In this document: piece by piece, positions 28,496 to 61,778 of the stretch | Layout of the letters: every line of letters begins with the position of its first letter | How positions within the stretch are numbered: the first letter of the stretch is position 1 | NCBI GenBank assembly: GCA_963835575.1 | Contig: CAWIGG010000004.1 | Span: 1,000,016 to 1,064,015 of the forward strand | Length of the DNA stretch: 64,000 nt | From: an uncultured Spirochaetota bacterium | GTDB taxonomy: Bacteria; Spirochaetota; Brevinematia; Brevinematales; JAOACQ01 | Direction: 5' to 3' | The notes under the pieces: model-generated | What the model saw: the letters and a program-made list of their open reading frames with translations, nothing else | Told to the model about the DNA's origin: nothing | Database searches by the model: none | Program-made: the position numbers and the translations under genes

Positions 28496-28496
28496 G

Positions 28497-44441: not shown

Positions 44442-44518
44442 ATCATCCGGACTATAGAAGCCGCCGGTTTCTCCCGATCCGGCCAACCGGATCAGCGCGA
44501 TCCAGCCGGGGAGATGAC

Positions 44519-44847: not shown

Positions 44848-45612
44848 CTAATCTCCATACTCGTCCCAAATATACACCACATCATTATTGTTTGTAACCT
44901 TTAAAGTTTGGATAACTCTATGACCTGACATGGGATAATCAATTACCTTGATTTCTTCAATCCTATTACTTTTACGCTTCACTTGAATTTTATCAATTAA
45001 ATACCTTTCTTTATCTTTTTGAGGAAAATTAATTGTACTTATTGGAAAATAGTCAATGTATTTACAAAACCCCAGAGCTTTTAAGACAACAAAAACTTCC
45101 TCTATTTTTCTTTTTTTGAACAAATATGTGCTATAATACAATCCCGCTTCGTATTCTCCTTCTTTAATTCCCGCATCCACATAATCTTGGACAATATCAT
45201 ATCCAAAAAGCACGGTTACATAACTGGCATTCGTATAATGATTGGTTTCATTGTAAATAATAAAGTTGGAGCTAATAACTTTTTCAACTTTTATCTGCTT
45301 TATAAAATAGTCCTTAATGCTACTATTTATGATTGGTGCAGGCAAGTCAGACAAATAACCACTAAAAATATAACCTTTTAATTTGTTGTACTCAACAAAT
45401 ACCCAATTACCATTAATATTATCAAATGTAAATTTTCTGTCTTTTTTGATTACATCCACAGAAGAACCATAGGGAACTTGAGTTAATATCTTTCCATTTT
45501 TATCTGCTTTATCTCTCAAAAACAAACCTGTCTTTGCTACCACATTTAACTTGACTTGGCTGTACAATTCGGCAAAAATAAAAATCAGGCAAAAAATTAG
45601 AAAGTGTTTCAT
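44848..45612 (-). CDS. second, identical copy of the secreted SH3-like immunity protein
   Basis: Translation identical to 39849..40613. Confidence 0.7.
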   Translation of the reverse strand: MKHFLIFCLIFIFAELYSQVKLNVVAKTGLFLRDKADKNGKILTQVPYGSSVDVIKKDRKFTFDNINGNWVFVEYNKLKGYIFSGYLSDLPAPIINSSIKDYFIKQIKVEKVISSNFIIYNETNHYTNASYVTVLFGYDIVQDYVDAGIKEGEYEAGLYYSTYLFKKRKIEEVFVVLKALGFCKYIDYFPISTINFPQKDKERYLIDKIQVKRKSNRIEEIKVIDYPMSGHRVIQTLKVTNNNDVVYIWDEYGD

Positions 45613-45628
45613 TAAAGGTATCCTCCCA

Positions 45629-48174
45629 TTATCTACCAATTTGGAAATGTAAATGTGGCGCATAATTTGGCGTACCACCCGATAAAGAAATTTTATTCCC
45701 AGCATCAACATTTGCATTTACACTATAGTATAGCTGATTGTTGTGCATATAAGTGTATTTTAAATTATCTGTCCCGCTAATTGTAATCATAATTCCGGCT
45801 CCTCCATAATTCCCAGCAGTAGTTACTATACCACCTTCAGCCGCATAAACAGGTGTGTTATTTCCGAATACCATATCAAAAGCAGTCCCATGACCATGAG
45901 GATCATTAGTATTTCGCCACATGCTGGTAACAACGAAGCCTTCATTATGGTTTGTGAAGTTGGCAAACCCAATAATTGCATCATCAGTCATATTTGAAAC
46001 AACCGTGTAGATATGTTCCTTACTTTGATCTAAAGTATAGGTTGCGGTTGTGCTGAAATCTAAATCAATATTTGTTCTGCCGATATTTATTGTCTGCCCG
46101 TCTATTGTTGTTACCCAATATCCTGTATCCTGGTTAAAAGTAAGATTTTCAAGCATTTCCCGTTTATAGAATTGCCCCAGCGTCCCGTTCTGAATAGCCT
46201 GCTGTTTTTCCTGATTATACGCCGCTTTCGCCGCCGCCACTTTCTCGTTCCCGGCAGTCATCGCATCGCCCGCAGTCTGGTTGTCATTGGCATCGTTCAC
46301 ACTCTGGCCGATTACCATCATTCCCGGCGTTTCCGGTCTTTCCATCCCGGCTTCCATACTCATTACAGTTGTTTTCATTCTCTCGGCCATATCCCGCTGC
46401 AAGCCCTGCCGCTCCATTTCAATTTCGTTAGCCGTCTTATTCCCGGCTTTCTTCCCCGTTTCAGCATTCTTCTGAATATTAATACACCTCGTCGCGGAAT
46501 AATTCGCGTAAGGCGTTACCCTCCCATCCGGGCTGACGTTAATCCCTATGCTTTCATTATGAAGCATCGAATCATTAGAGCCTTCAATCCCCTGCCTGTA
46601 CCCGATGTTTACGCCGAAGTTCGCTCCGGCATAATTGCCTTTAGCGTCGAAGTTCATTCCGAGGCTAAGGCCCGCATTGTAGCCTTTGCCGACATCACTG
46701 CCGATGCTTCCGTTAAATCCGTACCCCGCATACTGGCCGTTCTGGAAATTCAGTCCCGCGCCAACGCTTACCGCTCCGAATCCGGCGCTGAAGCCTATGT
46801 TGCTGCTGTTTGTACCGTTAGAATAGTAATCAACACCCGCCGAAAATCCCATGTGGAACCCGCTGTAAGGGTCGGCGCTTCCAAGCCCGGCGTTCACGTT
46901 GAAACCGAAATTAGAATTGTCCCATTTCCCATGAACTCCCGCGCCAACTGTAACGGCATTGCCAATAGAATAGCCGACTCCGGCGCTGTATCCTCTTGTC
47001 GAGAGACTTATATACAGTGGTATTCCATGCCCCGTCATTTCCATTGATGCCGCGCCTGAAAAAGCCCCAAGATTCAGATTCATGAAGTAGTCCCGCCGAA
47101 ATTCATTGTCCCGTTTAACAGATCGCCTATATTTGTTATCGCCGCATTTATAGTCCCGATTACTCCGCCGACTATCGCAAGGAAAAGTTCATATATAAAT
47201 TTTCCTTCGGGGTCGGTGTAACGGAAAGGATTGTTGTTGCCATAGACATATCTGTTTAATCCGGGGGGTGAATACCGCAAATCGGGGTTACTGACAGGAT
47301 CGCTTGAGATAAACCGGCCCGCGCTCGCGTCATAATAGCGCGCGCGGTTATAATAAAGCTTTGAATCCTTATCGAAATAAGAACAGGTATAGGAAATTCC
47401 CTGTTTAGCATTGCCGTCAATAGTTATCGCCGAGGTTTTCCCCAAAGGCGGTGTAATCGAAAGTCTATGAAAGAGAATGAAACCGTAGTGGTATATGATA
47501 GTAATGGGGTTGTCATATATCTCGCCCCTCACGCTCCCGAGGGCGTCCTTGACATAAACGGCCGTCCTCAACGTCTGTATTTCTGCTTCGTAACCGTTTA
47601 TCATAATATTATTGAGATAAAAAGACGGGCCTTCATATAATATATTATCGCCGTCGTAAGTGAAGCGGGTTGTATTGTCCCCCATACTTCCGGCGGTCTC
47701 CGGCGTTTCTTTTTTCAATATTCTTAAATTATTAATATCGTAAGTGTATTCTGAAAAAGCGACTATTTCCCCGTTCCGCTCAATGGTGTATTTCGTCATC
47801 AAATCGCGCTGGTTATACTGATAGCGTTCTACTTTATCCCCTTCGGTCTTCTTGACCAGCCTTCCGGCTCTGTCATAGATATAAGAAATGTTACCCGAAG
47901 GCTTTTGCTCACACAATAAGCGATTGTCGTTATCATAGACGTAGTTTATGGTAACAGTATTGCTCCCATCTAAATTCGACGTCTTTTTCAGCCGGTTACC
48001 TGAATTGTCATAAGCGAATTCCTCAAACTTTCCTCGGTCATAATCGGCCTTGACAAGCCTGTACGCCTTATCATAAAGAAACGCCGACACCCGTTCCCCA
48101 CCGGAGGCCGAACCATCCCCATTCGTGCCTATTCGCGTGGATTCGCGGGCCGTTTCCTTCGTCCTGTTCCCCAC
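45629..48174 (-). pseudogene. orphan rhs tip cassette 1 (inverted), disrupted: core fragment plus a copy of the M23 tip
   Basis: Split into ORFs 47080..48174 and 45629..47083 (4-nt overlap, frame change) at a point where the main gene is continuous. The conserved F-x-Y-T-A-F-G-E motif is out of frame: frame c reads TFDYTAFGENLGDNY flanked by stops at about 47.42-47.47 kb. There is no promoter or start of its own. The last 0.87 kb (from TRCINIQKNAETGKK) is identical to the main gene. Confidence 0.75.
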
Positions 48175-48348
48175 TTTGTCATATTGATATTCTTTTTCTC
48201 TCCCCCATGCGCGTTAAGAAAACAATTCAGGGCTGCCGGAAAAATTATTAATTATTGGCCGGTGGTACTCCCGCTTTTTAAGACCCGCGCACTCAAGCCC
48301 GCGTCCCTGGGAAAAGCCGGCAAACCATAGCCTGAGAGCTATAACCGC

Positions 48349-48386
48349 AAAAAACGGGAGGAATGAGATTAAGCCTCATTCCCCCC
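48349..48386 (-). terminator. Terminator after the 325-aa recombinase gene (left copy)
   Basis: Mirror of 61582..61619: GGAATGAG-gcttaat-CTCATTCC with GC extension, then TTTTTT. Confidence 0.65.
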
Positions 48387-48432
48387 GCCGGAAATAGTTT
48401 ATCAAACTGATTTGAAAAAGGCAAGAAAAGAT

Positions 48433-49410
48433 TTAATTGTTTTCGGGACGCGCCTCATCACCGTCATTGACGAGCATACCGGTACAGCGGGGATGCGTTT
48501 TTTCATAAACCTTCCGCAGATCAACGGGCATGACGCGGGAATAAATCTGAGTGGTGCTGAGGAAGGCATGTCCTAAAAGTTCCTGAACATAGCGGATGCT
48601 TGCCCCGTTGGCGATTAAATGGGTGGCGCAGGTATGGCGCAGGGTATGAGTGGAAACCCTCTTTTTAATCCCCGATTTCAGGACGTAGTTATGCAATGCG
48701 GCGCGGAAAGTTCCGGGGACAAGGCTGTCTCGTCCGACGGTGAAAAACACATTTTCGTTAGCCGCATTATTGCAATAGAGAGGCCGGACTTTATCAAGAT
48801 ACAGCTTGAGGAACCTTTTGGCCTGTTTTGTGATGGGTACAACCCGGTCTTTAGAACCTTTGCCCTTGATGAAAAGGTAGGGGCCTTCAAGGTCGAGGTC
48901 GTTGAGTTTAAGGGAACAAAGTTCCGCGCTTCGGATTCCGCTTCCGTAGAATATTTCAAGGATGGCCCTGTTGCGAAGCCCGACCGGATGTTTTATATTC
49001 GGCTGTCGGAGCAGGAGCTTCATTTCCTCGACGGAAAGGATGTCTTTAGGAAACGGGCGTTCAACGCGTTCCAGCGGAATATTGCGGGCGGGGTTTATGA
49101 AGATCATATCATTATTTTCAAGGAAGGAAAGCCAGAGGCGGAGGAAACTTGTCTCAGTCCTGCGGTAGCTGTCGCTGAAGGGCTTTCCGTTTTTCTTGCG
49201 GTGGTTTTTGAGGGAAAGGATGAATTTCTCAATATGTTCTGTTTTAATGTCCGTAACGTCCCGGACGGAAGGGGTGCACCCCAAAGATTCGAGGAACGGG
49301 AAAAGGTGATTGAAGAAAGTGTCAAACCTCAAGATTGTGGCCCCGCTCAAGTTCCTTTTTCTGAGGTGTTCGATGAACTTTTCCCTTGCGATGTAAATGG
49401 ATTTATTCAT
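48433..49410 (-). CDS. tyrosine recombinase (XerC/XerD-like), 325 aa
   Basis: C-terminal catalytic motifs HTLRHTCATHL (HxxR) and LLGHAFLSTTQIYSRV (catalytic Tyr), plus the earlier GSGIRSAELCSLKLNDLD (Arg box). Confidence 0.88.
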   Translation of the reverse strand: MNKSIYIAREKFIEHLRKRNLSGATILRFDTFFNHLFPFLESLGCTPSVRDVTDIKTEHIEKFILSLKNHRKKNGKPFSDSYRRTETSFLRLWLSFLENNDMIFINPARNIPLERVERPFPKDILSVEEMKLLLRQPNIKHPVGLRNRAILEIFYGSGIRSAELCSLKLNDLDLEGPYLFIKGKGSKDRVVPITKQAKRFLKLYLDKVRPLYCNNAANENVFFTVGRDSLVPGTFRAALHNYVLKSGIKKRVSTHTLRHTCATHLIANGASIRYVQELLGHAFLSTTQIYSRVMPVDLRKVYEKTHPRCTGMLVNDGDEARPENN

Positions 49411-50719
49411 GATTTTCCTCCTGCGTGTTCTCTTGAGATATTATCTCTCTTGGATGGAATGCCCGGAGCATGCGTTTAAGGTCTCCTTTTACCACTCTTG
49501 TGTAGGTTTCCGTCGTGTCGAGGCTTGTGTGCCCCAGCATTTCCTGAATATAGCGGATGTCCGCGCCGTTTTTAAGCATGTGGGTTGCGCATGCATAGCG
49601 GAAGGAATGAGGGATGAGGTGTTTTTTGATCCCGGCCTTAAGGGCGTATTTTTTTATCAGGCTTCCGATGAGGTTAACTGTCATCCGCTTTTTGAAAACG
49701 GAGAGAAAGAGGGCTTTGAGGTGCACCTCTTCATCCGGGTTATGAGGCGTGCCTTCCGGGCGTTCTTTCAGGTAATCCCGGATGCGGGAAAGGGCGATGT
49801 CATTGATCGGGACAGCGCGGTCTTTTTTATTCTTGCCTTTGTAAACGGTGATAAGTTTTTCGGTAAAATCGACGTTCCCGATATCGAGGTTAACCAGTTC
49901 TTTGACCCGGATTGCCGAGCCGTAGAGCGTTTCAATGATGGCGATGTCGCGGGAGCCGTAAGGCACGCCCCTGTGGCTTTTCATTTCGATAGAGCTTATA
50001 AGGCGGTCGATTTCGGCGAGGGTGGGGATATCGCGGGATATCCGCTTCGGGACTTTTGGGATTTCCACGGATTTTGAAGGGTCTGTAAGGATGATATTTT
50101 CGGAGCAGAGGAACTTGAAGAAGTTGCGGACATTCACAAGGATATTCGCGCGGGTGGTAACGTTGTAAGGCTTTTGTATTTTGCTCTTTCCCCGGCTTCC
50201 TTTGTAAACGAGGAGATAAAGGGCATAGCCGGAAACAACTTTTTTATCTACCCGCGCGATGTCCGTTATATTATTATTTTCAAGGTATTCCAGAAAGCGC
50301 CGGATGAGCGAGCGGGTAATATCAAGGGTGCGTTCGGAAACTTCCTTTGACGAGGAGATACGGCGGATATATCTTTCGAGAAGTTCCGTAAAGGGAATTG
50401 CGTTCGGGGAAACGGAATCTCTTGAAGCTCCCGGAATAAAGTTCTTCCATTCGAGGAACCGGACGAACTCGCGGGTCTTAAAGTACCCGGTTTTATTGGG
50501 TTTATGGGAACTCCACTCCCCGGTCCCGTGTTTAATCATGGCGAGATATTTATCCGACTGTTCCCTTGTGAAGCCGGAAAGCGGCATATTGTTCTTCTCA
50601 AGATATTCCAGAAGCTTCCGTGCGTAAAGGGCCTTATGCTTCAAGACATTTTCCTTTAACGGCTTAAAAGCCTTCGCGTGTGTAATGTACTCTTTCAGTA
50701 CGGCGTCTTTATCAATCAT
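49403..50719 (-). CDS. tyrosine recombinase, 438 aa, long N-terminal region
   Basis: GSAIRVKELVNLDIGNVD, HSFRYACATHML and MLGHTSLDTTETYTRV motifs. It overlaps the downstream recombinase gene by 8 nt. Confidence 0.88.
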   Translation of the reverse strand: MIDKDAVLKEYITHAKAFKPLKENVLKHKALYARKLLEYLEKNNMPLSGFTREQSDKYLAMIKHGTGEWSSHKPNKTGYFKTREFVRFLEWKNFIPGASRDSVSPNAIPFTELLERYIRRISSSKEVSERTLDITRSLIRRFLEYLENNNITDIARVDKKVVSGYALYLLVYKGSRGKSKIQKPYNVTTRANILVNVRNFFKFLCSENIILTDPSKSVEIPKVPKRISRDIPTLAEIDRLISSIEMKSHRGVPYGSRDIAIIETLYGSAIRVKELVNLDIGNVDFTEKLITVYKGKNKKDRAVPINDIALSRIRDYLKERPEGTPHNPDEEVHLKALFLSVFKKRMTVNLIGSLIKKYALKAGIKKHLIPHSFRYACATHMLKNGADIRYIQEMLGHTSLDTTETYTRVVKGDLKRMLRAFHPREIISQENTQEENHE

Positions 50720-50840
50720 ACGGTAATACCTCCTTTCAAAATATTTTGGCTCTGCCTCTCCCCCCGCTCCTACCGCTCACACTCGATTCAAGCCTTATTT
50801 TACAAAGGTTTGAAGCTCAAAAGTGTGAGCGCTCGCAGTT

Positions 50841-53723
50841 TCACACACTCACACGGTCGGCAGAGCGAAGCCGGAGTGACATTTCTTCCGGCGTGGGGAT
50901 TCTATCAAGCATTAAACGCTCCATTTCTTCTTCCAGAATGATCCTGTAAGCGTGGGTCTGGCCTCTGAAAGAACCCGATATGATTTCCAGAAACTCATAG
51001 TCGGCGAGAATCCCGGTATATTTCCTCACTTGAAAATGGCTCCAGCCGGAGTATTCCCATACCATCTTCCTGGTAAAGAGAATGTCCTTGACAGGCTTGT
51101 TATTCTCCCCGGATATCTCCGATACCATCTCCCTGATTATTCCATAAAGGTCTCTGGCGTTTTTCGGAATATCGGAAAGGGTGTTCGAGAGGATCCCGCT
51201 TTTGACGAGAAGGTCATAGGTTATTTTATAGTCGTCGAGGCTGGCTTCGATGTACTCAAAGGTTTCTTTTGCCGCCGCGTCCTCAATCGTTTTCCTTTCC
51301 CGCCGGTATTGATTGAAAAAAGTAACGGCGTTAAGCACCTGAATGAATTTCATCTGATCGCGCCGGGCTTCCAGCCTTCTTTCAGGGAATCCCATCAGTT
51401 CGGCGTAAGGATTGATGACTAAAACCGGCTTTAAAAGCTTCTGCGCGGCCTTATGCTTTTCAATGATAGCGGGGATTTTCCGCTTTATGAGGAAGCCGGC
51501 CGGGGTTTGAAGGAATCTCTGATACTCAAGGATTCTTGCCGTCTGTTCCTGCGTTTCATCGACAAAGAGGACAAGGCACCGGTTAAGGTTTTCAGGATTG
51601 AGGTTTTCAATCCTGCTGGCCGTCTCGATGTAGGCGATCGGCCCCTTTGTTTTTATTTTGACGCTTTTCATCTGTCCCGTTTTCTCATCTTTCATCGTAA
51701 CAAAGCGGGTGATCTCCTTACTTGAGATAAGTTCCCTTAACGGGTACTCTATATTTTCATTGCCCTTGCTTTCTCCGAGGCAGACGAACTTATGGCTTAA
51801 ATCGGAAGCGTAGTAGAGTGCTGTGTCCGACGCGCTGGATATGGCGACGACTTCCTCATCAGGCAGGAGCTTCCTGACTGTCTCCACAAGCTTGGTTTTA
51901 CCGGCGGAAGAACGGGAAATGATAATGCTGGCCAGAGGTTCTTCCATCTTCCGGGAAGCGGCGATGAGATAGACAAGGATTTTATTCATTTCCTCCCCGA
52001 TGTAGCCCAATGTCGATAAATCGTTTCTCACTTCCTCAAGGAGGGAAGGACTTTTGAGAAGTTCCAGCCCTATGGCTTTTTCCTCGTCCGAGAGGGAAAC
52101 TTCCACCGCCCCGGCCTTTGAAAGTATCTGGTTATCCCGGAGCCTTTCCAGCCTGTCGAGGATCGTTTCAAGGTGTGAAAGGATTGTTTCAAAGGAAACC
52201 TCGAAGCGCGCCCCGATAGTGTTCGCGAAGGCGGCGCGCATCCGGGCGGAGTAAAGGTTCACGCTGTCATAGAAGAAGTTTTCCTCTTTAAGGTGATGGA
52301 CGCGGACTCCGGCCTTGAGGCTATTTTCAAAATCTTCCTTTATTCCCCTGAGCCGATAAGTAAAGCCGTCGATAGTGAATTCATAATCTCCATTCGGAAG
52401 CTGTTTCATTTCGTTTGATTGTACTTCTTGAGGCGGACTCTCTTCTATTATATTAGAAGCTGGCGCGATGTTTTGAGGCGGAGCTGTGAACCGCGTTTCT
52501 TGAGGTATTACCGGAGGTATCACTTCTTCAACAAGCCGTTTCATTTCTTCGGGGGTGGCCTTACCTGCCGGAATAGATAAAATTTTCTGAGCTATATCAT
52601 CAATGCCCTGCGCTTCCTCGATTAATCTTTTGAGTGAGAGTCCGCCTTCCTCGATGGATGAAATCTTCATCAAGAGTTCATTAATGTCTTTGACTTTGAG
52701 GCCGCGCGTCTCCTCTGGAATAGTCAGGGTAAAGACATGGGAAAAGCCTTCTTTCTTAATCCGTTCGGAAAGCTTTTTTGAAGCGAACTTTCCCGCCCCG
52801 TCATTATCATAGGCTATGATTATTTTGCGGGTATTGTTTTCCTCCATAAGTTTGAGGTGGTTTTCGGTAAAGCCCTGAATTCCGAAAGAAGCCGTTACGT
52901 TCAGGAAGCCGAGCCGGACACAGGACAGCGCGTCAATGACGCTTTCGGTTATTATGATTTCCTCATACACCTTGAAAGCTTTTGAGTTGAACACCCCTTC
53001 GTGTTTTCCCTTAAGGTAGCGGTGCTTGATCTTGGCTTCTTCATTGATAGAGCGTCCATAGATTTCAACAACGCGGTTTTCCCCGTCCATAATCGGAAAG
53101 ATGATACAGCCTTTGAATAACTCAAAGACGCTTTCCTTTCCGGATTTGTTTCTAAGTCTGCCGATGATACCGAGGCTTTCAAGGATTTCCAGCTCTTCGC
53201 CGGTCTTTGAAAGCGTTTCCGGTATGTTGCCTTTAGAAAATCCGAGTTTAAAGGTATTTATTATTTCCGGCGTTCCGATTCCTCTTTGTTCAAGGTATTT
53301 TAGAGCCTCTGGACTTTCTAAAAGGTTTTTATGATAGATTTCAGCAAGTCTTTCAAGAATCGGGATTCTTTTATTCTTATCAAGGCTTACAGGCTCCGGC
53401 GCGGTTTCTTTCTTAAGAGATACTTTCACTTTTTTAACCGGCTCTTGAATGTTCAAATTACCGGCAAGATAATTTACCGCCTCATTGAATTTGAGGCCGC
53501 GCCTTTTCATCACATAGCTGAATATATCCCCGCCCTGTTCACAGCCGAAGCAATGGTAAAGCTGTTTTTCTGTATCGACGGAAAGCGAAGGCGTTTTATC
53601 ATCGTGAAAGGGACAGAGCGTCATAAATTTTCCCTGCCCCGCCGGGATGAGGTCATGCCCCTCCCGCCGGAGGTATTCCTCCAGCGGGAGAGAGTTCTTG
53701 ATTTTCTCTTTAATGTTTTCCAT
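50841..53723 (-). CDS. primase-helicase-like protein (zf-CHC2 + Toprim + P-loop NTPase)
   Basis: DnaG-type zinc finger CPFHDDKTPSLSVDTEKQLYHCFGCEQGGDIFSYV. Toprim ITESVIDALS...IIIAYDNDGAGK. Walker A-like SRSSAGKTKL and Walker B-like CLVLFVDE in the C-terminal half. Confidence 0.85.
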   Translation of the reverse strand: MENIKEKIKNSLPLEEYLRREGHDLIPAGQGKFMTLCPFHDDKTPSLSVDTEKQLYHCFGCEQGGDIFSYVMKRRGLKFNEAVNYLAGNLNIQEPVKKVKVSLKKETAPEPVSLDKNKRIPILERLAEIYHKNLLESPEALKYLEQRGIGTPEIINTFKLGFSKGNIPETLSKTGEELEILESLGIIGRLRNKSGKESVFELFKGCIIFPIMDGENRVVEIYGRSINEEAKIKHRYLKGKHEGVFNSKAFKVYEEIIITESVIDALSCVRLGFLNVTASFGIQGFTENHLKLMEENNTRKIIIAYDNDGAGKFASKKLSERIKKEGFSHVFTLTIPEETRGLKVKDINELLMKISSIEEGGLSLKRLIEEAQGIDDIAQKILSIPAGKATPEEMKRLVEEVIPPVIPQETRFTAPPQNIAPASNIIEESPPQEVQSNEMKQLPNGDYEFTIDGFTYRLRGIKEDFENSLKAGVRVHHLKEENFFYDSVNLYSARMRAAFANTIGARFEVSFETILSHLETILDRLERLRDNQILSKAGAVEVSLSDEEKAIGLELLKSPSLLEEVRNDLSTLGYIGEEMNKILVYLIAASRKMEEPLASIIISRSSAGKTKLVETVRKLLPDEEVVAISSASDTALYYASDLSHKFVCLGESKGNENIEYPLRELISSKEITRFVTMKDEKTGQMKSVKIKTKGPIAYIETASRIENLNPENLNRCLVLFVDETQEQTARILEYQRFLQTPAGFLIKRKIPAIIEKHKAAQKLLKPVLVINPYAELMGFPERRLEARRDQMKFIQVLNAVTFFNQYRRERKTIEDAAAKETFEYIEASLDDYKITYDLLVKSGILSNTLSDIPKNARDLYGIIREMVSEISGENNKPVKDILFTRKMVWEYSGWSHFQVRKYTGILADYEFLEIISGSFRGQTHAYRIILEEEMERLMLDRIPTPEEMSLRLRSADRVSV

Positions 53724-53734
53724 GCTGTCCTCCC

Positions 53735-54100
53735 TTATTTCCAGATAACAAGGAACCGGACGGAGAGTTCAAGGCAGATGCGGAGCGTTGAGCCTGTGCC
53801 TCTGGAAATGCCATCCCAGAACAGGACAACAAAATCGCAATATTTTACCAGCTCCCTATTTCTGACAATGCCCGCAGACCGTCCGTATTTATGCCACAGG
53901 GCCGGAAACACTTTCAAGTCCAGCGCATGGGCGCGGGCATACCGCTCCGCGAGGGCGTCAGCGCCTTGAGGACATCCGCCCGACACCACAACATCGGCGC
54001 AGGACAAATCCAGAGCGTCGAGCGTTTTCTCAAGCTTCGCATAGTCGGTAAAAGAACGCGAGCCGACAACCCCGATTTTCACATAGTTTTTATTTTCCAT
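53735..54100 (-). CDS. SLOG-fold protein (DUF2493 / DprA-like Rossmann)
   Basis: 121 aa. IGVVGSRSFTDY...VVVSGGCPQGADALAERYA...GRSAGIVRNRELV...VLFWDGISRGT matches the DUF2493 pattern as I know it. Confidence 0.7.
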   Translation of the reverse strand: MENKNYVKIGVVGSRSFTDYAKLEKTLDALDLSCADVVVSGGCPQGADALAERYARAHALDLKVFPALWHKYGRSAGIVRNRELVKYCDFVVLFWDGISRGTGSTLRICLELSVRFLVIWK

Positions 54101-54299
54101 TTATTCCTCCCGCCTTCATGCTGGCCGCTATGCCGCTTTTGAAGACGCCCGGTCGTACCCCCGCTGATACCCTTTTGTCAAGTACTTTTTTAGATTTATT
54201 TTACTGATACTTTCAGTACAAAGACTTGAAAAAAGAAAATATCCGGCCTTTGATTAAAAGCCTTAATGACTTTCATAACTAAACACAAACAGGCCATGT

Positions 54300-54345
54300 C
54301 GTTTTGGCATGGGTTTTGACATTCGCAGAAACCCATGCCAAAACG
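54300..54345 (+). repeat. Covarying hairpin H1 (17-bp perfect stem, conserved loop)
   Basis: CGTTTTGGCATGGGTTT-tgacattcgcag-AAACCCATGCCAAAACG. Confidence 0.9.
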
Positions 54346-54378
54346 GAGAAAGCTTTAGAATGGAATAATAAGACATCT

Positions 54379-54426
54379 CCGTTCCGGCATATTTTTTGAC
54401 GGCCGCAAAAAGATATGCCGGAACGG
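54379..54426 (+). repeat. Covarying hairpin H2
   Basis: CCGTTCCGGCATAT-tttttgacggccgcaaaaag-ATATGCCGGAACGG; the inner TTTTT/AAAAA extends the stem. Confidence 0.85.
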
Positions 54427-54503
54427 TGTTACCTCAATTCTTAAAATTATTAGTTTATTAACAATTCAATAATGTCTTTAAGTGTTTTGCAGACTCTTAT
54501 TAT

Positions 54504-54532
54504 TTGACAAAATATCCATATGGGTATATATT
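54504..54532 (+). promoter_or_regulatory. Sigma70-like promoter with palindromic core for the second TA operon
   Basis: TTGACA (54504-54509), 17 nt, then TATATT (54527-54532). The spacer contains CCATATGG with imperfect flanking symmetry. Confidence 0.6.
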
Positions 54533-54548
54533 ATTTTAGGATTGAAAG

Positions 54549-54929
54549 ATGGAATTAAAATTTTTTACGTCAAAAGATGGAAAACAACCTGTTCTTGATT
54601 TCATACGTTCTTTAGAAAAGCCGGACCGTGCTAAAATATACGGATGTCTTGACAGTATAGAAATGTTAGGTTTTGAAACACCCAGAGTAGAATTCCGGCA
54701 AATTGAAGGAAAGCTCTGGGAAATCAAGATAAAGACTGTTTCGGGCGGATATAGAGTATTTTATATATCCATCCATCATCATATCCTTGTTTTACTTCAC
54801 GTTTATAAGAAACAGTCGCAAAAAGCGCCAGCAAAAGAAATAAAGACAGCGAAAACCCGTTTAAAGGAGGTAATTGAAAATGAGGGCGATTACATTAAAG
54901 GAAGCGATAGCGGAAGAAATGAAAGATGA
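54549..54929 (+). CDS. type II toxin, Gp49-like / HigB-RelE superfamily (paralog of 12737..13090)
   Basis: PRVEFRQIEGKLWEIKIKTVSGGYRVFYISIHHHILVLLHVYKKQSQKAP is closely parallel to the first module. Confidence 0.75.
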   Translation: MELKFFTSKDGKQPVLDFIRSLEKPDRAKIYGCLDSIEMLGFETPRVEFRQIEGKLWEIKIKTVSGGYRVFYISIHHHILVLLHVYKKQSQKAPAKEIKTAKTRLKEVIENEGDYIKGSDSGRNER

Positions 54930-55176
54930 GGAATTCGCAGTCCTTTTTGAGAATGAGAGAATAATAAATAACTTAGCTAAAACTATAGTGGAGATGAGGC
55001 AAAAAAGAGGCTTGACACAAGCTGAATTAGCCGAAAAAGCCCATACTACACAGCCGGTAATAGCTCGTCTGGAAAAAGGTTCTGATTCGCGGATTCCATC
55101 ATTGGAGCTTTTAAACCGAATTGCTCATGCGCTTGGCAAAGAAATATTCATTGATTTTAAGCCAGACCATCATTAA
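54880..55176 (+). CDS. HTH (XRE-family) antitoxin (paralog of 13068..13367)
   Basis: GLTQAELAEKAHTTQPVIARLEKGSDSRIPSLELLNRIAHALGKEIFIDF. I prefer the ATG at 54880 (AAGGAGG 9 nt upstream) over the TTG at 54874. Confidence 0.75.
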   Translation: MRAITLKEAIAEEMKDEEFAVLFENERIINNLAKTIVEMRQKRGLTQAELAEKAHTTQPVIARLEKGSDSRIPSLELLNRIAHALGKEIFIDFKPDHH

Positions 55177-55305
55177 AACACTCTTCTAAAAACAGTAAAG
55201 CCCTGTTCTTTTTAAAAGCTAAAGTATAATCGCTTTAATATAAGGACAGGGCTTTTTTATTTAAAATGGAAAGTCAGCCTCTCATTTAAAACAAAAAGAT
55301 TACTT

Positions 55306-55350
55306 CACTCTGGTATGGGTTTTGCATCCGCATAAACCCATACCAGAGTG
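55306..55350 (+). repeat. Covarying hairpin H3
   Basis: CACTCTGGTATGGGTTT-tgcatccgcat-AAACCCATACCAGAGTG. Confidence 0.9.
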
Positions 55351-55411
55351 CCGAAAGCTTTTCGCAGTAAAAAAGGAGTTTTCTAATTATGAATAGACAA
55401 ATAGTCGTCTT

Positions 55412-55457
55412 CACTTTGGCACGGGTTTTGACATTCGCACAAACCCGTGCCAAAGTG
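55412..55457 (+). repeat. Covarying hairpin H4
   Basis: CACTTTGGCACGGGTTT-tgacattcgcac-AAACCCGTGCCAAAGTG. Confidence 0.9.
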
Positions 55458-55550
55458 CTGATGGCCTTTCTATTATAATAATAAATGGGTATTATTCATT
55501 AGACAGAAGCCTTTCTTCATCGCCTTATGTTTTTAAAAAAAGCCCTCTTC

Positions 55551-55594
55551 GCCCTGGCATAGTTTTTGACGTCCGCAAAAAACTATGCCAGGGC
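55551..55594 (+). repeat. Covarying hairpin H5
   Basis: GCCCTGGCATAGTTTTT-gacgtccgca-AAAAACTATGCCAGGGC. Confidence 0.9.
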
Positions 55595-55867
55595 GTACAA
55601 ATCTTTTCAAAACGAAAAAGAGAAATTTATCAAAATCCTTTGTTCAAAGGCGGTTATCAACAAACCTTTGTTTTTAAAGAAAGAATTAATTATCTAACCG
55701 TTCACTTTTAAAACATTCCTTGTTATTAAATGCAAGCCATGTGTTTTCAATCCCGTATCAGTAAAATAAATCTAAAAAAGTACTTGACAAAAGGGTATCA
55801 GCGGGGGTAAAGGGGTTTCCCGTCTTCAAAAGCGGCATAGCGGCCAGCATGAAGGCGGGAGGAATAA

Positions 55868-56233
55868 ATGGAAAATAAAAACTATGTGAAAATCGGGGTT
55901 GTCGGCTCGCGTTCTTTTACCGACTATGCGAAGCTTGAGAAAACGCTCGACGCTCTGGATTTGTCCTGCGCCGATGTTGTGGTGTCGGGCGGATGTCCTC
56001 AAGGCGCTGACGCCCTCGCGGAGCGGTATGCCCGCGCCCATGCGCTGGACTTGAAAGTGTTTCCGGCCCTGTGGCATAAATACGGACGGTCTGCGGGCAT
56101 TGTCAGAAATAGGGAGCTGGTAAAATATTGCGATTTTGTTGTCCTGTTCTGGGATGGCATTTCCAGAGGCACAGGCTCAACGCTCCGCATCTGCCTTGAA
56201 CTCTCCGTCCGGTTCCTTGTTATCTGGAAATAA
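55868..56233 (+). CDS. SLOG-fold protein (DUF2493-like), right copy
   Basis: Translation identical to 53735..54100. Confidence 0.7.
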   Translation: MENKNYVKIGVVGSRSFTDYAKLEKTLDALDLSCADVVVSGGCPQGADALAERYARAHALDLKVFPALWHKYGRSAGIVRNRELVKYCDFVVLFWDGISRGTGSTLRICLELSVRFLVIWK

Positions 56234-56244
56234 GGGAGGACAGC

Positions 56245-59127
56245 ATGGAAAACATTAAAGAGAAAATCAAGAACTCTCTCCCGCTGGAGGAATACCTCCG
56301 GCGGGAGGGGCATGACCTCATCCCGGCGGGGCAGGGAAAATTTATGACGCTCTGTCCCTTTCACGATGATAAAACGCCTTCGCTTTCCGTCGATACAGAA
56401 AAACAGCTTTACCATTGCTTCGGCTGTGAACAGGGCGGGGATATATTCAGCTATGTGATGAAAAGGCGCGGCCTCAAATTCAATGAGGCGGTAAATTATC
56501 TTGCCGGTAATTTGAACATTCAAGAGCCGGTTAAAAAAGTGAAAGTATCTCTTAAGAAAGAAACCGCGCCGGAGCCTGTAAGCCTTGATAAGAATAAAAG
56601 AATCCCGATTCTTGAAAGACTTGCTGAAATCTATCATAAAAACCTTTTAGAAAGTCCAGAGGCTCTAAAATACCTTGAACAAAGAGGAATCGGAACGCCG
56701 GAAATAATAAATACCTTTAAACTCGGATTTTCTAAAGGCAACATACCGGAAACGCTTTCAAAGACCGGCGAAGAGCTGGAAATCCTTGAAAGCCTCGGTA
56801 TCATCGGCAGACTTAGAAACAAATCCGGAAAGGAAAGCGTCTTTGAGTTATTCAAAGGCTGTATCATCTTTCCGATTATGGACGGGGAAAACCGCGTTGT
56901 TGAAATCTATGGACGCTCTATCAATGAAGAAGCCAAGATCAAGCACCGCTACCTTAAGGGAAAACACGAAGGGGTGTTCAACTCAAAAGCTTTCAAGGTG
57001 TATGAGGAAATCATAATAACCGAAAGCGTCATTGACGCGCTGTCCTGTGTCCGGCTCGGCTTCCTGAACGTAACGGCTTCTTTCGGAATTCAGGGCTTTA
57101 CCGAAAACCACCTCAAACTTATGGAGGAAAACAATACCCGCAAAATAATCATAGCCTATGATAATGACGGGGCGGGAAAGTTCGCTTCAAAAAAGCTTTC
57201 CGAACGGATTAAGAAAGAAGGCTTTTCCCATGTCTTTACCCTGACTATTCCAGAGGAGACGCGCGGCCTCAAAGTCAAAGACATTAATGAACTCTTGATG
57301 AAGATTTCATCCATCGAGGAAGGCGGACTCTCACTCAAAAGATTAATCGAGGAAGCGCAGGGCATTGATGATATAGCTCAGAAAATTTTATCTATTCCGG
57401 CAGGTAAGGCCACCCCCGAAGAAATGAAACGGCTTGTTGAAGAAGTGATACCTCCGGTAATACCTCAAGAAACGCGGTTCACAGCTCCGCCTCAAAACAT
57501 CGCGCCAGCTTCTAATATAATAGAAGAGAGTCCGCCTCAAGAAGTACAATCAAACGAAATGAAACAGCTTCCGAATGGAGATTATGAATTCACTATCGAC
57601 GGCTTTACTTATCGGCTCAGGGGAATAAAGGAAGATTTTGAAAATAGCCTCAAGGCCGGAGTCCGCGTCCATCACCTTAAAGAGGAAAACTTCTTCTATG
57701 ACAGCGTGAACCTTTACTCCGCCCGGATGCGCGCCGCCTTCGCGAACACTATCGGGGCGCGCTTCGAGGTTTCCTTTGAAACAATCCTTTCACACCTTGA
57801 AACGATCCTCGACAGGCTGGAAAGGCTCCGGGATAACCAGATACTTTCAAAGGCCGGGGCGGTGGAAGTTTCCCTCTCGGACGAGGAAAAAGCCATAGGG
57901 CTGGAACTTCTCAAAAGTCCTTCCCTCCTTGAGGAAGTGAGAAACGATTTATCGACATTGGGCTACATCGGGGAGGAAATGAATAAAATCCTTGTCTATC
58001 TCATCGCCGCTTCCCGGAAGATGGAAGAACCTCTGGCCAGCATTATCATTTCCCGTTCTTCCGCCGGTAAAACCAAGCTTGTGGAGACAGTCAGGAAGCT
58101 CCTGCCTGATGAGGAAGTCGTCGCCATATCCAGCGCGTCGGACACAGCACTCTACTACGCTTCCGATTTAAGCCATAAGTTCGTCTGCCTCGGAGAAAGC
58201 AAGGGCAATGAAAATATAGAGTACCCGTTAAGGGAACTTATCTCAAGTAAGGAGATCACCCGCTTTGTTACGATGAAAGATGAGAAAACGGGACAGATGA
58301 AAAGCGTCAAAATAAAAACAAAGGGGCCGATCGCCTACATCGAGACGGCCAGCAGGATTGAAAACCTCAATCCTGAAAACCTTAACCGGTGCCTTGTCCT
58401 CTTTGTCGATGAAACGCAGGAACAGACGGCAAGAATCCTTGAGTATCAGAGATTCCTTCAAACCCCGGCCGGCTTCCTCATAAAGCGGAAAATCCCCGCT
58501 ATCATTGAAAAGCATAAGGCCGCGCAGAAGCTTTTAAAGCCGGTTTTAGTCATCAATCCTTACGCCGAACTGATGGGATTCCCTGAAAGAAGGCTGGAAG
58601 CCCGGCGCGATCAGATGAAATTCATTCAGGTGCTTAACGCCGTTACTTTTTTCAATCAATACCGGCGGGAAAGGAAAACGATTGAGGACGCGGCGGCAAA
58701 AGAAACCTTTGAGTACATCGAAGCCAGCCTCGACGACTATAAAATAACCTATGACCTTCTCGTCAAAAGCGGGATCCTCTCGAACACCCTTTCCGATATT
58801 CCGAAAAACGCCAGAGACCTTTATGGAATAATCAGGGAGATGGTATCGGAGATATCCGGGGAGAATAACAAGCCTGTCAAGGACATTCTCTTTACCAGGA
58901 AGATGGTATGGGAATACTCCGGCTGGAGCCATTTTCAAGTGAGGAAATATACCGGGATTCTCGCCGACTATGAGTTTCTGGAAATCATATCGGGTTCTTT
59001 CAGAGGCCAGACCCACGCTTACAGGATCATTCTGGAAGAAGAAATGGAGCGTTTAATGCTTGATAGAATCCCCACGCCGGAAGAAATGTCACTCCGGCTT
59101 CGCTCTGCCGACCGTGTGAGTGTGTGA
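56245..59127 (+). CDS. primase-helicase-like protein, right copy
   Basis: Translation identical to 50841..53723. Confidence 0.85.
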   Translation: MENIKEKIKNSLPLEEYLRREGHDLIPAGQGKFMTLCPFHDDKTPSLSVDTEKQLYHCFGCEQGGDIFSYVMKRRGLKFNEAVNYLAGNLNIQEPVKKVKVSLKKETAPEPVSLDKNKRIPILERLAEIYHKNLLESPEALKYLEQRGIGTPEIINTFKLGFSKGNIPETLSKTGEELEILESLGIIGRLRNKSGKESVFELFKGCIIFPIMDGENRVVEIYGRSINEEAKIKHRYLKGKHEGVFNSKAFKVYEEIIITESVIDALSCVRLGFLNVTASFGIQGFTENHLKLMEENNTRKIIIAYDNDGAGKFASKKLSERIKKEGFSHVFTLTIPEETRGLKVKDINELLMKISSIEEGGLSLKRLIEEAQGIDDIAQKILSIPAGKATPEEMKRLVEEVIPPVIPQETRFTAPPQNIAPASNIIEESPPQEVQSNEMKQLPNGDYEFTIDGFTYRLRGIKEDFENSLKAGVRVHHLKEENFFYDSVNLYSARMRAAFANTIGARFEVSFETILSHLETILDRLERLRDNQILSKAGAVEVSLSDEEKAIGLELLKSPSLLEEVRNDLSTLGYIGEEMNKILVYLIAASRKMEEPLASIIISRSSAGKTKLVETVRKLLPDEEVVAISSASDTALYYASDLSHKFVCLGESKGNENIEYPLRELISSKEITRFVTMKDEKTGQMKSVKIKTKGPIAYIETASRIENLNPENLNRCLVLFVDETQEQTARILEYQRFLQTPAGFLIKRKIPAIIEKHKAAQKLLKPVLVINPYAELMGFPERRLEARRDQMKFIQVLNAVTFFNQYRRERKTIEDAAAKETFEYIEASLDDYKITYDLLVKSGILSNTLSDIPKNARDLYGIIREMVSEISGENNKPVKDILFTRKMVWEYSGWSHFQVRKYTGILADYEFLEIISGSFRGQTHAYRIILEEEMERLMLDRIPTPEEMSLRLRSADRVSV

Positions 59128-59248
59128 AACTGCGAGCGCTCACACTTTTGAGCTTCAAACCTTTGTAAAATAAGGCTTGAATCGAGTGTGAGCGGTAGGA
59201 GCGGGGGGAGAGGCAGAGCCAAAATATTTTGAAAGGAGGTATTACCGT

Positions 59249-60565
59249 ATGATTGATAAAGACGCCGTACTGAAAGAGTACATTACACACGCGAAGGCTT
59301 TTAAGCCGTTAAAGGAAAATGTCTTGAAGCATAAGGCCCTTTACGCACGGAAGCTTCTGGAATATCTTGAGAAGAACAATATGCCGCTTTCCGGCTTCAC
59401 AAGGGAACAGTCGGATAAATATCTCGCCATGATTAAACACGGGACCGGGGAGTGGAGTTCCCATAAACCCAATAAAACCGGGTACTTTAAGACCCGCGAG
59501 TTTGTCCGGTTCCTCGAATGGAAGAACTTTATTCCGGGAGCTTCAAGAGATTCCGTTTCCCCGAACGCAATTCCCTTTACGGAACTTCTCGAAAGATATA
59601 TCCGCCGTATCTCCTCGTCAAAGGAAGTTTCCGAACGCACCCTTGATATTACCCGCTCGCTCATCCGGCGCTTTCTGGAATACCTTGAAAATAATAATAT
59701 AACGGACATCGCGCGGGTAGATAAAAAAGTTGTTTCCGGCTATGCCCTTTATCTCCTCGTTTACAAAGGAAGCCGGGGAAAGAGCAAAATACAAAAGCCT
59801 TACAACGTTACCACCCGCGCGAATATCCTTGTGAATGTCCGCAACTTCTTCAAGTTCCTCTGCTCCGAAAATATCATCCTTACAGACCCTTCAAAATCCG
59901 TGGAAATCCCAAAAGTCCCGAAGCGGATATCCCGCGATATCCCCACCCTCGCCGAAATCGACCGCCTTATAAGCTCTATCGAAATGAAAAGCCACAGGGG
60001 CGTGCCTTACGGCTCCCGCGACATCGCCATCATTGAAACGCTCTACGGCTCGGCAATCCGGGTCAAAGAACTGGTTAACCTCGATATCGGGAACGTCGAT
60101 TTTACCGAAAAACTTATCACCGTTTACAAAGGCAAGAATAAAAAAGACCGCGCTGTCCCGATCAATGACATCGCCCTTTCCCGCATCCGGGATTACCTGA
60201 AAGAACGCCCGGAAGGCACGCCTCATAACCCGGATGAAGAGGTGCACCTCAAAGCCCTCTTTCTCTCCGTTTTCAAAAAGCGGATGACAGTTAACCTCAT
60301 CGGAAGCCTGATAAAAAAATACGCCCTTAAGGCCGGGATCAAAAAACACCTCATCCCTCATTCCTTCCGCTATGCATGCGCAACCCACATGCTTAAAAAC
60401 GGCGCGGACATCCGCTATATTCAGGAAATGCTGGGGCACACAAGCCTCGACACGACGGAAACCTACACAAGAGTGGTAAAAGGAGACCTTAAACGCATGC
60501 TCCGGGCATTCCATCCAAGAGAGATAATATCTCAAGAGAACACGCAGGAGGAAAATCATGAATAA
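59249..60565 (+). CDS. tyrosine recombinase 438 aa, right copy
   Basis: Translation identical to 49403..50719. Confidence 0.88.
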   Translation: MIDKDAVLKEYITHAKAFKPLKENVLKHKALYARKLLEYLEKNNMPLSGFTREQSDKYLAMIKHGTGEWSSHKPNKTGYFKTREFVRFLEWKNFIPGASRDSVSPNAIPFTELLERYIRRISSSKEVSERTLDITRSLIRRFLEYLENNNITDIARVDKKVVSGYALYLLVYKGSRGKSKIQKPYNVTTRANILVNVRNFFKFLCSENIILTDPSKSVEIPKVPKRISRDIPTLAEIDRLISSIEMKSHRGVPYGSRDIAIIETLYGSAIRVKELVNLDIGNVDFTEKLITVYKGKNKKDRAVPINDIALSRIRDYLKERPEGTPHNPDEEVHLKALFLSVFKKRMTVNLIGSLIKKYALKAGIKKHLIPHSFRYACATHMLKNGADIRYIQEMLGHTSLDTTETYTRVVKGDLKRMLRAFHPREIISQENTQEENHE

Positions 60566-61535
60566 ATCCATTTACATCGCAAGGGAAAAGTTCATCGAAC
60601 ACCTCAGAAAAAGGAACTTGAGCGGGGCCACAATCTTGAGGTTTGACACTTTCTTCAATCACCTTTTCCCGTTCCTCGAATCTTTGGGGTGCACCCCTTC
60701 CGTCCGGGACGTTACGGACATTAAAACAGAACATATTGAGAAATTCATCCTTTCCCTCAAAAACCACCGCAAGAAAAACGGAAAGCCCTTCAGCGACAGC
60801 TACCGCAGGACTGAGACAAGTTTCCTCCGCCTCTGGCTTTCCTTCCTTGAAAATAATGATATGATCTTCATAAACCCCGCCCGCAATATTCCGCTGGAAC
60901 GCGTTGAACGCCCGTTTCCTAAAGACATCCTTTCCGTCGAGGAAATGAAGCTCCTGCTCCGACAGCCGAATATAAAACATCCGGTCGGGCTTCGCAACAG
61001 GGCCATCCTTGAAATATTCTACGGAAGCGGAATCCGAAGCGCGGAACTTTGTTCCCTTAAACTCAACGACCTCGACCTTGAAGGCCCCTACCTTTTCATC
61101 AAGGGCAAAGGTTCTAAAGACCGGGTTGTACCCATCACAAAACAGGCCAAAAGGTTCCTCAAGCTGTATCTTGATAAAGTCCGGCCTCTCTATTGCAATA
61201 ATGCGGCTAACGAAAATGTGTTTTTCACCGTCGGACGAGACAGCCTTGTCCCCGGAACTTTCCGCGCCGCATTGCATAACTACGTCCTGAAATCGGGGAT
61301 TAAAAAGAGGGTTTCCACTCATACCCTGCGCCATACCTGCGCCACCCATTTAATCGCCAACGGGGCAAGCATCCGCTATGTTCAGGAACTTTTAGGACAT
61401 GCCTTCCTCAGCACCACTCAGATTTATTCCCGCGTCATGCCCGTTGATCTGCGGAAGGTTTATGAAAAAACGCATCCCCGCTGTACCGGTATGCTCGTCA
61501 ATGACGGTGATGAGGCGCGTCCCGAAAACAATTAA
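60558..61535 (+). CDS. tyrosine recombinase 325 aa, right copy
   Basis: Translation identical to 48433..49410. Confidence 0.88.
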   Translation: MNKSIYIAREKFIEHLRKRNLSGATILRFDTFFNHLFPFLESLGCTPSVRDVTDIKTEHIEKFILSLKNHRKKNGKPFSDSYRRTETSFLRLWLSFLENNDMIFINPARNIPLERVERPFPKDILSVEEMKLLLRQPNIKHPVGLRNRAILEIFYGSGIRSAELCSLKLNDLDLEGPYLFIKGKGSKDRVVPITKQAKRFLKLYLDKVRPLYCNNAANENVFFTVGRDSLVPGTFRAALHNYVLKSGIKKRVSTHTLRHTCATHLIANGASIRYVQELLGHAFLSTTQIYSRVMPVDLRKVYEKTHPRCTGMLVNDGDEARPENN

Positions 61536-61581
61536 ATCTTTTCTTGCCTTTTTCAAATCAGTTTGATAAACTATTTCCGGC

Positions 61582-61619
61582 GGGGGGAATGAGGCTTAAT
61601 CTCATTCCTCCCGTTTTTT
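61582..61619 (+). terminator. Terminator after the 325-aa recombinase gene (right copy)
   Basis: GGGGGGAATGAG-gcttaat-CTCATTCCTCCC, then GTTTTTTG. Confidence 0.65.
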
Positions 61620-61778
61620 GCGGTTATAGCTCTCAGGCTATGGTTTGCCGGCTTTTCCCAGGGACGCGGGCTTGAGTGCGCGGGTCTTAAAAAGCGGGAG
61701 TACCACCGGCCAATAATTAATAATTTTTCCGGCAGCCCTGAATTGTTTTCTTAACGCGCATGGGGGAGAGAAAAAGAA

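Follow-up and report, generated by a model that had tools for sequence, protein, structure and literature searches.

This locus raises the question of what a family of small hairpins does in the non-coding centre of a mobile element. The hairpins, H1 to H5, lie in a 64,000-nt stretch of contig CAWIGG010000004.1 (positions 1,000,016 to 1,064,015), the window, in whose own numbering all positions below are given. Here, two inverted copies of an Rhs-associated element, each encoding a candidate primase-helicase and two tyrosine recombinases, flank a unique segment that holds a toxin-antitoxin (TA) operon and all five hairpins. Our favoured answer, to which we give a probability of roughly 0.3, is that the hairpins act as folded single-strand origin or priming signals for the primase-helicase of the element. 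The preliminary description of the window had reported five hairpins with perfect 17-bp stems; all five were recovered where it had placed them, with stems of 17-19 bp rather than uniformly 17 bp. It had also listed several candidate roles without deciding between them; these are weighed below by their probability.

54300..54345, plus strand: H1, perfect 17-bp stem CGTTTTGGCATGGGTTT / AAACCCATGCCAAAACG, 12-nt loop TGACATTCGCAG, folding z-score -6.1, 87.8 bits
54379..54426, plus strand: H2, stem of 19 bp including one T·G pair, near-palindromic loop GACGGCCGCA, z-score -6.5
55306..55350, plus strand: H3, perfect 17-bp stem, 11-nt loop TGCATCCGCAT, z-score -8.8, located 3' of the TA-operon terminator
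55412..55457, plus strand: H4, perfect 17-bp stem, loop TGACATTCGCAC, z-score -6.5
55550..55595, plus strand: H5, perfect 18-bp stem, loop GACGTCCGCA, z-score -9.4

The hairpins all fall within positions 54148-55820 (1,673 nt), which bears out their described placement in the unique segment between the element copies, and they form one cluster of two (H1-H2) and another of three (H3-H5), the distances between successive starts being 80, 925-927, 106-107 and 138 nt. Each folds as single-stranded DNA at -20 to -22 kcal/mol, and the z-scores of -6.1 to -9.4 were obtained against 200 dinucleotide shuffles, none of which matched any native fold. The copies share 60-81% pairwise identity, are surrounded by loosely conserved A-rich and T-rich flanks, and are crossed by no open reading frame (ORF) of at least 70 aa. 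A shared loop had been proposed in the form TGAC(A/G)T(T/C)CGCA; the loops, 10-12 nt long, do have a common pattern (TTTTG(A)C-N3-CGCA-N-AAA), while those of H2 and H3 diverge from it somewhat. H2, with its near-palindromic loop, scored higher with the covariance model on the minus strand.

The 438-aa recombinase of the element has two 90%-identical relatives in ENA metagenome data, which led to the contigs L007/L008 and L009. Six hairpins from L007 and five from L009 were aligned with the five from the window, giving a three-fold larger sample of 16 copies. In this alignment, 95.6% of the cells in the 17-bp stem are paired, and 10 of the 17 stem pairs show two-sided compensatory changes, with only one-sided changes at one or two pairs. 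The covariation score was 0.414, compared with 0.189 ± 0.019 for shuffled alignments (0 of 500 reached the native value), and it fell to 0.07-0.16 when partners were slid by 1-3 columns. The covariation is far beyond chance, and the compensatory changes first described for H1, H3 and H4 (GGCATGG/CCATGCC, GGTATGG/CCATACC and GGCACGG/CCGTGCC, respectively) are correct. Weak pairing and no convincing covariation were seen in an outer AAAAG/CTTTT helix and in a 3-bp extension with a 2-nt bulge, the proposed bulged outer helix being only 40-75% paired.

The conservation is unevenly distributed along the unit. Invariant positions are the closing C-G pair, a GG/CC doublet within a GGCA/TGCC box, the sub-apical TTT/AAA and the C...CGCA of the loop. 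Among paralogues, the apical loop and the TTT/AAA are kept, whereas the base of the stem is free to vary and still remains perfectly paired. At orthologous loci, identity reaches 92-97% in the stems, compared with 62-86% in the spacers and 68-85% in the loops. The preliminary description had proposed selection on a folded nucleic acid rather than on a peptide, and this view gains from the strong covariation, from the non-coding character of the region and from orthologous stems being better conserved than the spacers; its request for a covariation test on more copies is answered by the score above.

Two loops were found flipped in place. The H2 loop in L009 is the exact reverse complement of the H2 loop in the window, with unchanged flanks, and a flipped-loop variant of H3 occurs in a freshwater-sediment contig (run X3). 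Since in-place flips are a signature of intra-hairpin template switching, they indicate that the hairpins form at the DNA level in vivo. Template switching in quasi-palindromes could also help to keep the stems perfect, besides selection; because the same process can restore arm symmetry, perfect pairing is not purely a readout of selection.

The evidence leans towards DNA over RNA, considering the scarcity of G·U pairs, the independence of hairpin polarity from gene direction and the two flipped loops. A role at the RNA level, in which the units would be small RNAs, processing or stabilising stem-loops, or terminators, is for these reasons very improbable. The stems would fold equally well as RNA, and the region lies between active-looking promoters. 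However, G·U pairs occupy only about 5 of the 272 stem cells (5 of the 17 non-Watson-Crick cells), and the polarity of the hairpins stays constant in L009, where the neighbouring module lies on the opposite strand. Moreover, on neither strand is a stem immediately followed by a run of T's, the nearest beginning 7-8 nt away, a terminator scan called none of H1-H5, and the TA operon has its own canonical terminator (55190-55262) before H3; other genes of the window use T-tailed terminators. The hairpins matched no Rfam family at gathering or permissive thresholds. In the window, two tRNAs alone passed, and the centre gave sub-threshold matches to generic hairpins (microRNA precursors).

Two further classes were considered and set aside. 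The TTGACA of the loop has no -10 box at a spacing proper for a promoter. Clustered repeats of the CRISPR type are at odds with the divergence between copies, the irregular spacing and the lack of cas genes.

The surroundings of the hairpins are as follows.

48119..54147, minus strand: left element copy, its outermost 71 nt derived from Rhs
48433-49410, minus strand: Xer-like recombinase of the left copy, 325 aa
49403-50719, minus strand: Xer-like recombinase of the left copy, 438 aa
50841-53723, minus strand: DnaG-type primase with P-loop domain of the left copy, 960 aa
53735-54100, minus strand: SLOG/YAcAr protein of the left copy, 121 aa
54148..54155, with partner 55810-55820: 'A/B patch' in the SLOG promoter region, the sole difference between the arms
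54156..54210, with partner 55755-55809: inner 55-bp perfect inverted repeat, which contains the -35 box of the SLOG operon and bounds the invertible centre
54504..55262, plus strand: TA module between H2 and H3
54504-54532, plus strand: strong TA promoter TTGACA-17-TATATT
54549-54929, plus strand: Gp49/HigB-type toxin
54874-55176, plus strand: helix-turn-helix (HTH) antitoxin
55190-55262, plus strand: T-tailed terminator hairpin of the TA operon, before H3
55821..61849, plus strand: right element copy, 100% identical and inverted, with genes at 55868-56233, 56245-59127, 59249-60565 and 60558-61535

The two copies form an inverted repeat of 6,029 bp (arms 48119-54147 and 55821-61849) without a single mismatch. 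The centre between them is the most AT-rich part of the locus, with a GC content of 0.37-0.39 compared with 0.47-0.49 in the arms. As to the neighbours named at the outset, the 960-aa protein is confirmed as a primase of the DnaG type: a domain search recognised its CHC2 zinc ribbon and its DnaG/Toprim primase core, and Walker A- and B-like motifs were recognised by eye in its sequence. A domain that takes its name from a Methanothermobacter plasmid protein occurs in relatives. A search of PDB sequences with the C-terminal half of the primase returned no match. The two recombinases beside it both retain the full R-K-H-R-H-Y catalytic set, in line with the recombinase neighbours first described, and they match the XerC/XerD models best (201-236 bits, compared with cut-offs of 330-371). 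On the integron integrase model TIGR02249 they reached 111 and 100 bits (cut-off 265), each in two split stretches; both belong to the Xer/IntI-like group. Models of defence systems matched only generic primase and HTH domains, and exact look-up of the SLOG and toxin proteins gave no record.

Two other hairpins occur within the arms and are also present in L007 and L009. One (48355-48387 / 61581-61613) lies just 3' of the gene for the 325-aa recombinase, has T's after it and probably acts as a terminator; the second (53661-53690 / 56278-56307) sits at the junction of the SLOG and primase genes.

Set in this frame, H1-H5 may be cis-acting DNA stem-loops in the AT-rich, non-coding 'head' of an Rhs-associated integrative replicon. 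A conserved loop on a stem base that varies freely while remaining perfectly paired fits recognition of a displayed single-stranded loop. Such a pattern of conservation also suits G4-type single-strand initiation (ssi) signals and the single-strand origins (sso) of rolling-circle plasmids. For ssiA and ssiB of RSF1010, the same pattern is known (PMC8567376). In structure, too, the units have what ssi and sso signals have, namely a stable single-stranded DNA hairpin with a conserved unpaired motif, here placed between two primase operons. Their location between the divergent SLOG-primase operons, in the AT-rich centre, was counted in favour of an origin or priming role and, as the element encodes its own primase, an origin must exist somewhere in it. 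The functional steps, all of which we infer, would run as follows. Once the head has been unwound or goes through a single-stranded phase, each 46-nt unit would snap into a stable hairpin that resists coating and displays the conserved apical loop (TTTTGAC-N3-CGCA-N-AAA). Grouped into an H1-H2 and an H3-H5 cluster between the two replication operons, which are transcribed divergently, the hairpins would then serve as redundant origin or priming signals, with the primase-helicase as their presumed reader and priming or origin firing as the presumed output.

Relatives of the element at 42-50% identity again have structured DNA just upstream of the gene module. In one of them (L017, 50% identity), ORF-poor DNA at positions 1-1800, upstream of the SLOG gene, holds nested hairpins, many of which are perfect, with arm lengths of 14-35 nt; these are larger than, and unrelated to, the H1-H5 family, gave no Rfam match, and carry ACATTC in two of their loops. 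In another (L010), a hairpin with a loop reading TTTTGACGG was seen.

Several points weigh against a role in priming or origin firing. The likeness of the loop motifs in L017 and L010 is short and post hoc, and as support it is weak. Known primase-helicase replicons, such as P4 and the phage-inducible chromosomal islands (PICIs), use duplex iterons, not hairpins. All copies have one polarity, though the flanking replication operons mirror each other. ParA-type relatives (L018 and L123) lack such an array, DnaA boxes are not enriched in the centre, and an origin model alone would not lead one to expect modules that vary from genome to genome and have hairpins at or near their borders.

The perfect symmetry of the arms also invites a reading in which the units are palindromic protein sites in duplex DNA, either lox/FRT-like cores used by the Xer-like pair or sites of an iteron- or operator-like kind, bound by the replication protein or by the HTH antitoxin; this we consider quite improbable. 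Perfect inverted arms around a conserved, asymmetric 10-12-bp centre are formally the layout of a tyrosine-recombinase core, the invariant GGCA/TGCC and TTT/AAA boxes could be half-sites, and two paralogous recombinases would suit a site whose inner arm ends differ. Such a centre nevertheless exceeds the 6-8-bp overlap of known tyrosine-recombinase sites, and half-sites give no reason why 10 of the 17 arm positions vary and yet stay symmetric. Exchange through a shared spacer should, moreover, yield unlike arms, and no such hybrid hairpin was found among the 16 copies. The dif and pdif sites of XerC and XerD were also rejected, the hairpins having 17-bp arms and a 10-12-nt centre instead of 11-bp arms and a 6-8-bp centre, and the proteins scoring below the XerC and XerD cut-offs.

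The two related loci have the same architecture as the window, with inverted copies flanking a centre of 1.7-2.0 kb (arms at 1-4550 / 6561-11110 in L007 and at 69-4408 / 6083-10422 in L009). Within each of the three genomes the arms are 100% identical, whereas between genomes they share 78-85% identity, which points to concerted evolution of the large inverted repeat in each genome. The A/B patch (8-13 nt, in two forms, one per arm) nevertheless stays different in all three genomes despite its homogenised surroundings; in L009, the two promoter patches have traded places with respect to the centre, so that at least one inversion of the centre through the 55-bp repeat must have occurred. Different genomes show inversion, relative to the flanks, either of the centre or of the centre with its patch. 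The longer patch form resembles the sequence found in L017, a distant relative.

A three-way alignment of the centres showed that H1 and H2 are common to all three genomes, and that the content after H2 differs.

Window, after H2: Gp49/HTH, then H3-H5
L009, after H2: PIN_2 and a 72-aa ORF on the opposite strand, then H3-H5
L007, after H2: Gp49/HTH, a hairpin, the 72-aa ORF alone, then three hairpin units non-orthologous to H4/H5

Hairpins thus stand at or near the borders of the differing units, though these borders do not all fall at one fixed nucleotide. This modularity suggests a second role, by our estimate a close rival to the first though on balance doubtful as well, in which the hairpins are attC-like sites, that is, folded single-strand substrates of the Xer-like pair with a crossover at the base of the stem. 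Hairpin-bounded units, both TA modules and 'empty' ones, would then be inserted, excised and reordered, as in an integron-like array without an integron integrase. In line with this, the three genomes share H1-H2 and right-hand hairpins and differ in between, a window indel of about 46 nt begins exactly at the 3' base of H2, and the copy number varies (five in the window, five in L009, six in L007), the right-hand units of L007 being non-orthologous, with 43% identity in their spacers compared with 78% in the arms. The hairpins share a single polarity, as sites do in a cassette array, the catalytic sets and group affinity of the recombinases are as needed, and the absence of hybrid hairpins is expected if exchange occurs outside the stem.

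Other observations argue against cassette recombination. The conservation is reversed, with a conserved apex and a variable base, and the perfect stems lack the extrahelical bases that guide strand choice in attC. H3, whose base and 3' flank stay constant whichever module precedes it, resembles a stationary platform site more than one that travels with a cassette, and the Gp49/HTH module has diverged to the same extent as the arms (78% identity in each), which implies that no recent exchange took place. The recombinases further have an evident job at the Rhs end, where the junction shows no hairpin-like sequence, and the relatives L010 and L018 lack arrays. Canonical attC sites were rejected. 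No IntI is encoded, both recombinases scoring far below the TIGR02249 cut-off; the stem bases read C-R-Y-Y-Y-Y-G-G ... C-C-R-R-R-R-Y-G, with no AAC/GTT triplet correctly oriented for RYYYAAC/GTTRRRY boxes; and perfect 17-19-bp stems in 46-nt units differ from the imperfect attC stems with extrahelical bases and an unpaired central spacer in sites of about 55-140 nt. What the family does have in common with attC is its one polarity, bar the two loop flips, and its position at or near the borders of differing modules. A more specific form of this proposal, which we put forward tentatively and as somewhat less probable still, is an integron-like cassette platform that evolved independently of integron integrases, the Xer-like pair reading perfect, loop-marked hairpins to capture, shuffle and discard small modules such as TA pairs.

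The distribution of the family was assessed with a covariance model built from all 16 copies, which was scanned against the window and 33 kb of related loci. Matches were confined to the central segments of the window, L007 and L009. The rest of the 64 kb gave no match better than E = 6, and the flanks of L007 and L009 as well as the distant relatives were also negative. In the GTDB representatives, the exact pattern of loop and stem box had four matches and none was a hairpin, while a relaxed pattern had 15, all below 19 bits on the model. The exact pattern had no match in IMG/VR, and the strict pattern none in the JGI metagenomes; the relaxed pattern had 19 matches in the latter, all by chance except possibly one. 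This is a 2.9-kb metagenome contig without clear genes (L038), which reached 36 bits and may be related. It carries very long hairpins at 694-809 and 1009-1069 with loops of the form TTTTG..GCGCA.AAA, one stem base, ACTTTGGCA, being H4-like.

These searches bear on the reading of the hairpins as selfish or neutral palindromic repeats, spread locally in AT-rich intergenic DNA in the manner of miniature inverted-repeat or REP elements. Template switching or hairpin repair would keep their stems perfect, and they would matter only as fragile, recombination-prone breakpoints. We regard this as rather unlikely. The flipped loops of H2 and H3 are what template switching within a hairpin classically produces, and the same process restores arm symmetry by itself; copy number and hairpin identity vary between genomes, the flanks of each unit are A-rich and T-rich in a loosely conserved manner, and distant relatives do not keep the family. 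However, no copies occur elsewhere in the window, in the 33 kb of related loci or in the three large public collections, so that the suspicion of a generic REP-like repeat, raised in the preliminary description, is not borne out in the DNA covered, which for the 1.07-Mb source contig is the window. Orthologous stems are more conserved than spacers, the loop and the GGCA/TGCC and TTT/AAA boxes are kept among otherwise differing paralogues, which points to sequence-specific constraint, and no RAYT- or IS200-type mobilising enzyme lies nearby. REP and BIME repeats as such were rejected, given the confinement of the copies, within the DNA scanned, to the central segments and the lack of an HUH or RAYT gene.

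The RpoB of the host, an uncultured freshwater-sediment bacterium, is at most 59% identical to that of any of 185,579 species representatives, which marks it as a deep, unrepresented lineage. At positions 1-11596 of the window, two tRNAs are followed by what position and ORF lengths suggest to be a cluster of nusG, the genes for ribosomal proteins L11-L1-L10-L7/L12, rpoB and rpoC, of which the rpoB ORF was checked by similarity. The 438-aa recombinase has no close relatives in GTDB, and no account of the element or the hairpins was found in the literature. The hairpins would form a family of folded-DNA signals that is new, private to this lineage and active in cis, with replication priming and cassette recombination as its main candidate jobs.

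The element itself has the look of an integrative replicon whose insertions fall in rhs genes and supply new C-terminal toxin tips. The relatives at 42-50% identity keep its module of a SLOG or ParA gene, a primase and two recombinases, and an ORF with RHS repeats directly follows in every relative long enough to show it (L011, L013, L018 and L123); L123 carries tandem repeats of the whole unit, and these include an Rhs fragment as well as ankyrin repeats and a phospholipase-like domain. In the window, Rhs regions lie at the outer element ends (47080-48189 and 61779-62296), and the outer ends of both arms run into homology with position 37277 of the main rhs gene, which encodes 3,602 aa. The recombinases would thus most plausibly serve integration at rhs, and the hairpins lie at the opposite end of the element from the rhs junction, the one concerned with replication and maintenance.

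Other repeats were noted around the rhs gene. In a second, nested palindrome at 37277-48189 (inverted repeats 38789-40942 / 44519-46672, 97% identical, centre at about 42733), the M23-peptidase tip from the C-terminus of the 3,602-aa Rhs protein, together with its SH3 partner, is duplicated in inverted orientation around ankyrin-repeat and caspase-like genes; this layout suggests that inversion switches or displaces Rhs tips. A 45-nt repeat (CCACCCCC..CCCCTCCTT-loop-AAGGAGGGG) occurs seven times at 28493-36475, mostly in frame within the rhs ORF; the repeat encodes a P-L-L-N-K-E-G-S-like peptide and has a conserved 9-bp stem and a variable loop. Tandem repeats of about 174 nt (3-6 copies, 66-88% identity) occupy 26212-27456, just upstream of the large rhs gene. 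Finally, a second Gp49/HTH pair (12737-13367, within 12504-13501) has 71% DNA identity to the central TA pair and is flanked by AGCT-rich direct repeats of 62-65 nt, with no hairpin of the studied family there.

Folded-DNA signals are few and have come mostly from model plasmids, phages and integrons. The present family is a clean, new one with strong covariation; its host is an uncultured bacterium of freshwater sediment that branches deeply, and its occurrence is linked to a single kind of mobile element. Should the hairpins prove to be priming sites, they would provide a defined substrate for an uncharacterised family of DnaG-type primase-helicases; if they are recombination sites, they would constitute the first cassette array run by Xer-like enzymes. 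The element is itself notable as a replicon with two recombinases always abutting an Rhs fragment, and may deliver new Rhs toxin tips.

Compared with known systems, the loop flips resemble the hairpin-loop inversions of chloroplast genomes and of E. coli mutation hotspots, where loops flip in place with stem and flanks constant and palindromes correct themselves. Template switching in quasi-palindromes is, however, a mutational process rather than a function, and it accounts for the flips and for some of the perfect pairing but for neither the conserved loop nor the restriction to one locus. REP and BIME repeats are likewise short palindromic units with compensatory stem changes, sometimes clustered, though they are dispersed in tens to hundreds of copies and linked to RAYT, unlike the hairpins, which are confined to one segment of 1.5-2 kb per genome. 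With dif, pdif and the folded attP of CTX phage, the locus has in common a Xer-like enzyme pair and small modules, often TA, bounded by short palindromic sites, and CTX-phage attP offers a precedent for Xer enzymes acting on a folded single strand. The layout differs, being 17-(10 to 12)-17 rather than 11-(6 to 8)-11, no dif-like sequence is present, pdif modules alternate in polarity where the hairpins share one, and neither protein reaches the equivalog cut-off for XerC or XerD.

With integron attC sites and their cassette arrays, the locus shares one-polarity folded-DNA hairpins at or near the borders of small promoter-carrying modules that include TA pairs, adjacent Xer/IntI-like tyrosine recombinases, and a content that differs between close genomes. 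The present locus departs from them in lacking IntI, R''/R' boxes and extrahelical bases, in its 46-nt units with a conserved apex, and in the inverted copies of the enzyme genes on both sides of the array. As for the ssi and sso signals (RSF1010 ssiA/ssiB, read by the primase RepB', G4-type ssi, and ssoA/ssoU of rolling-circle plasmids), the hairpins have no sequence similarity to them, the primase is of the DnaG type with a P-loop domain and not of the RepB' type, and five to six copies of one polarity are split around a TA operon. What connects them is that these signals, too, are stable hairpins of about 40 nt or larger which work only when folded, combine a free stem sequence with a conserved short loop or adjacent motif, and lie in cis to the replication genes of their own replicon, where several copies may occur.

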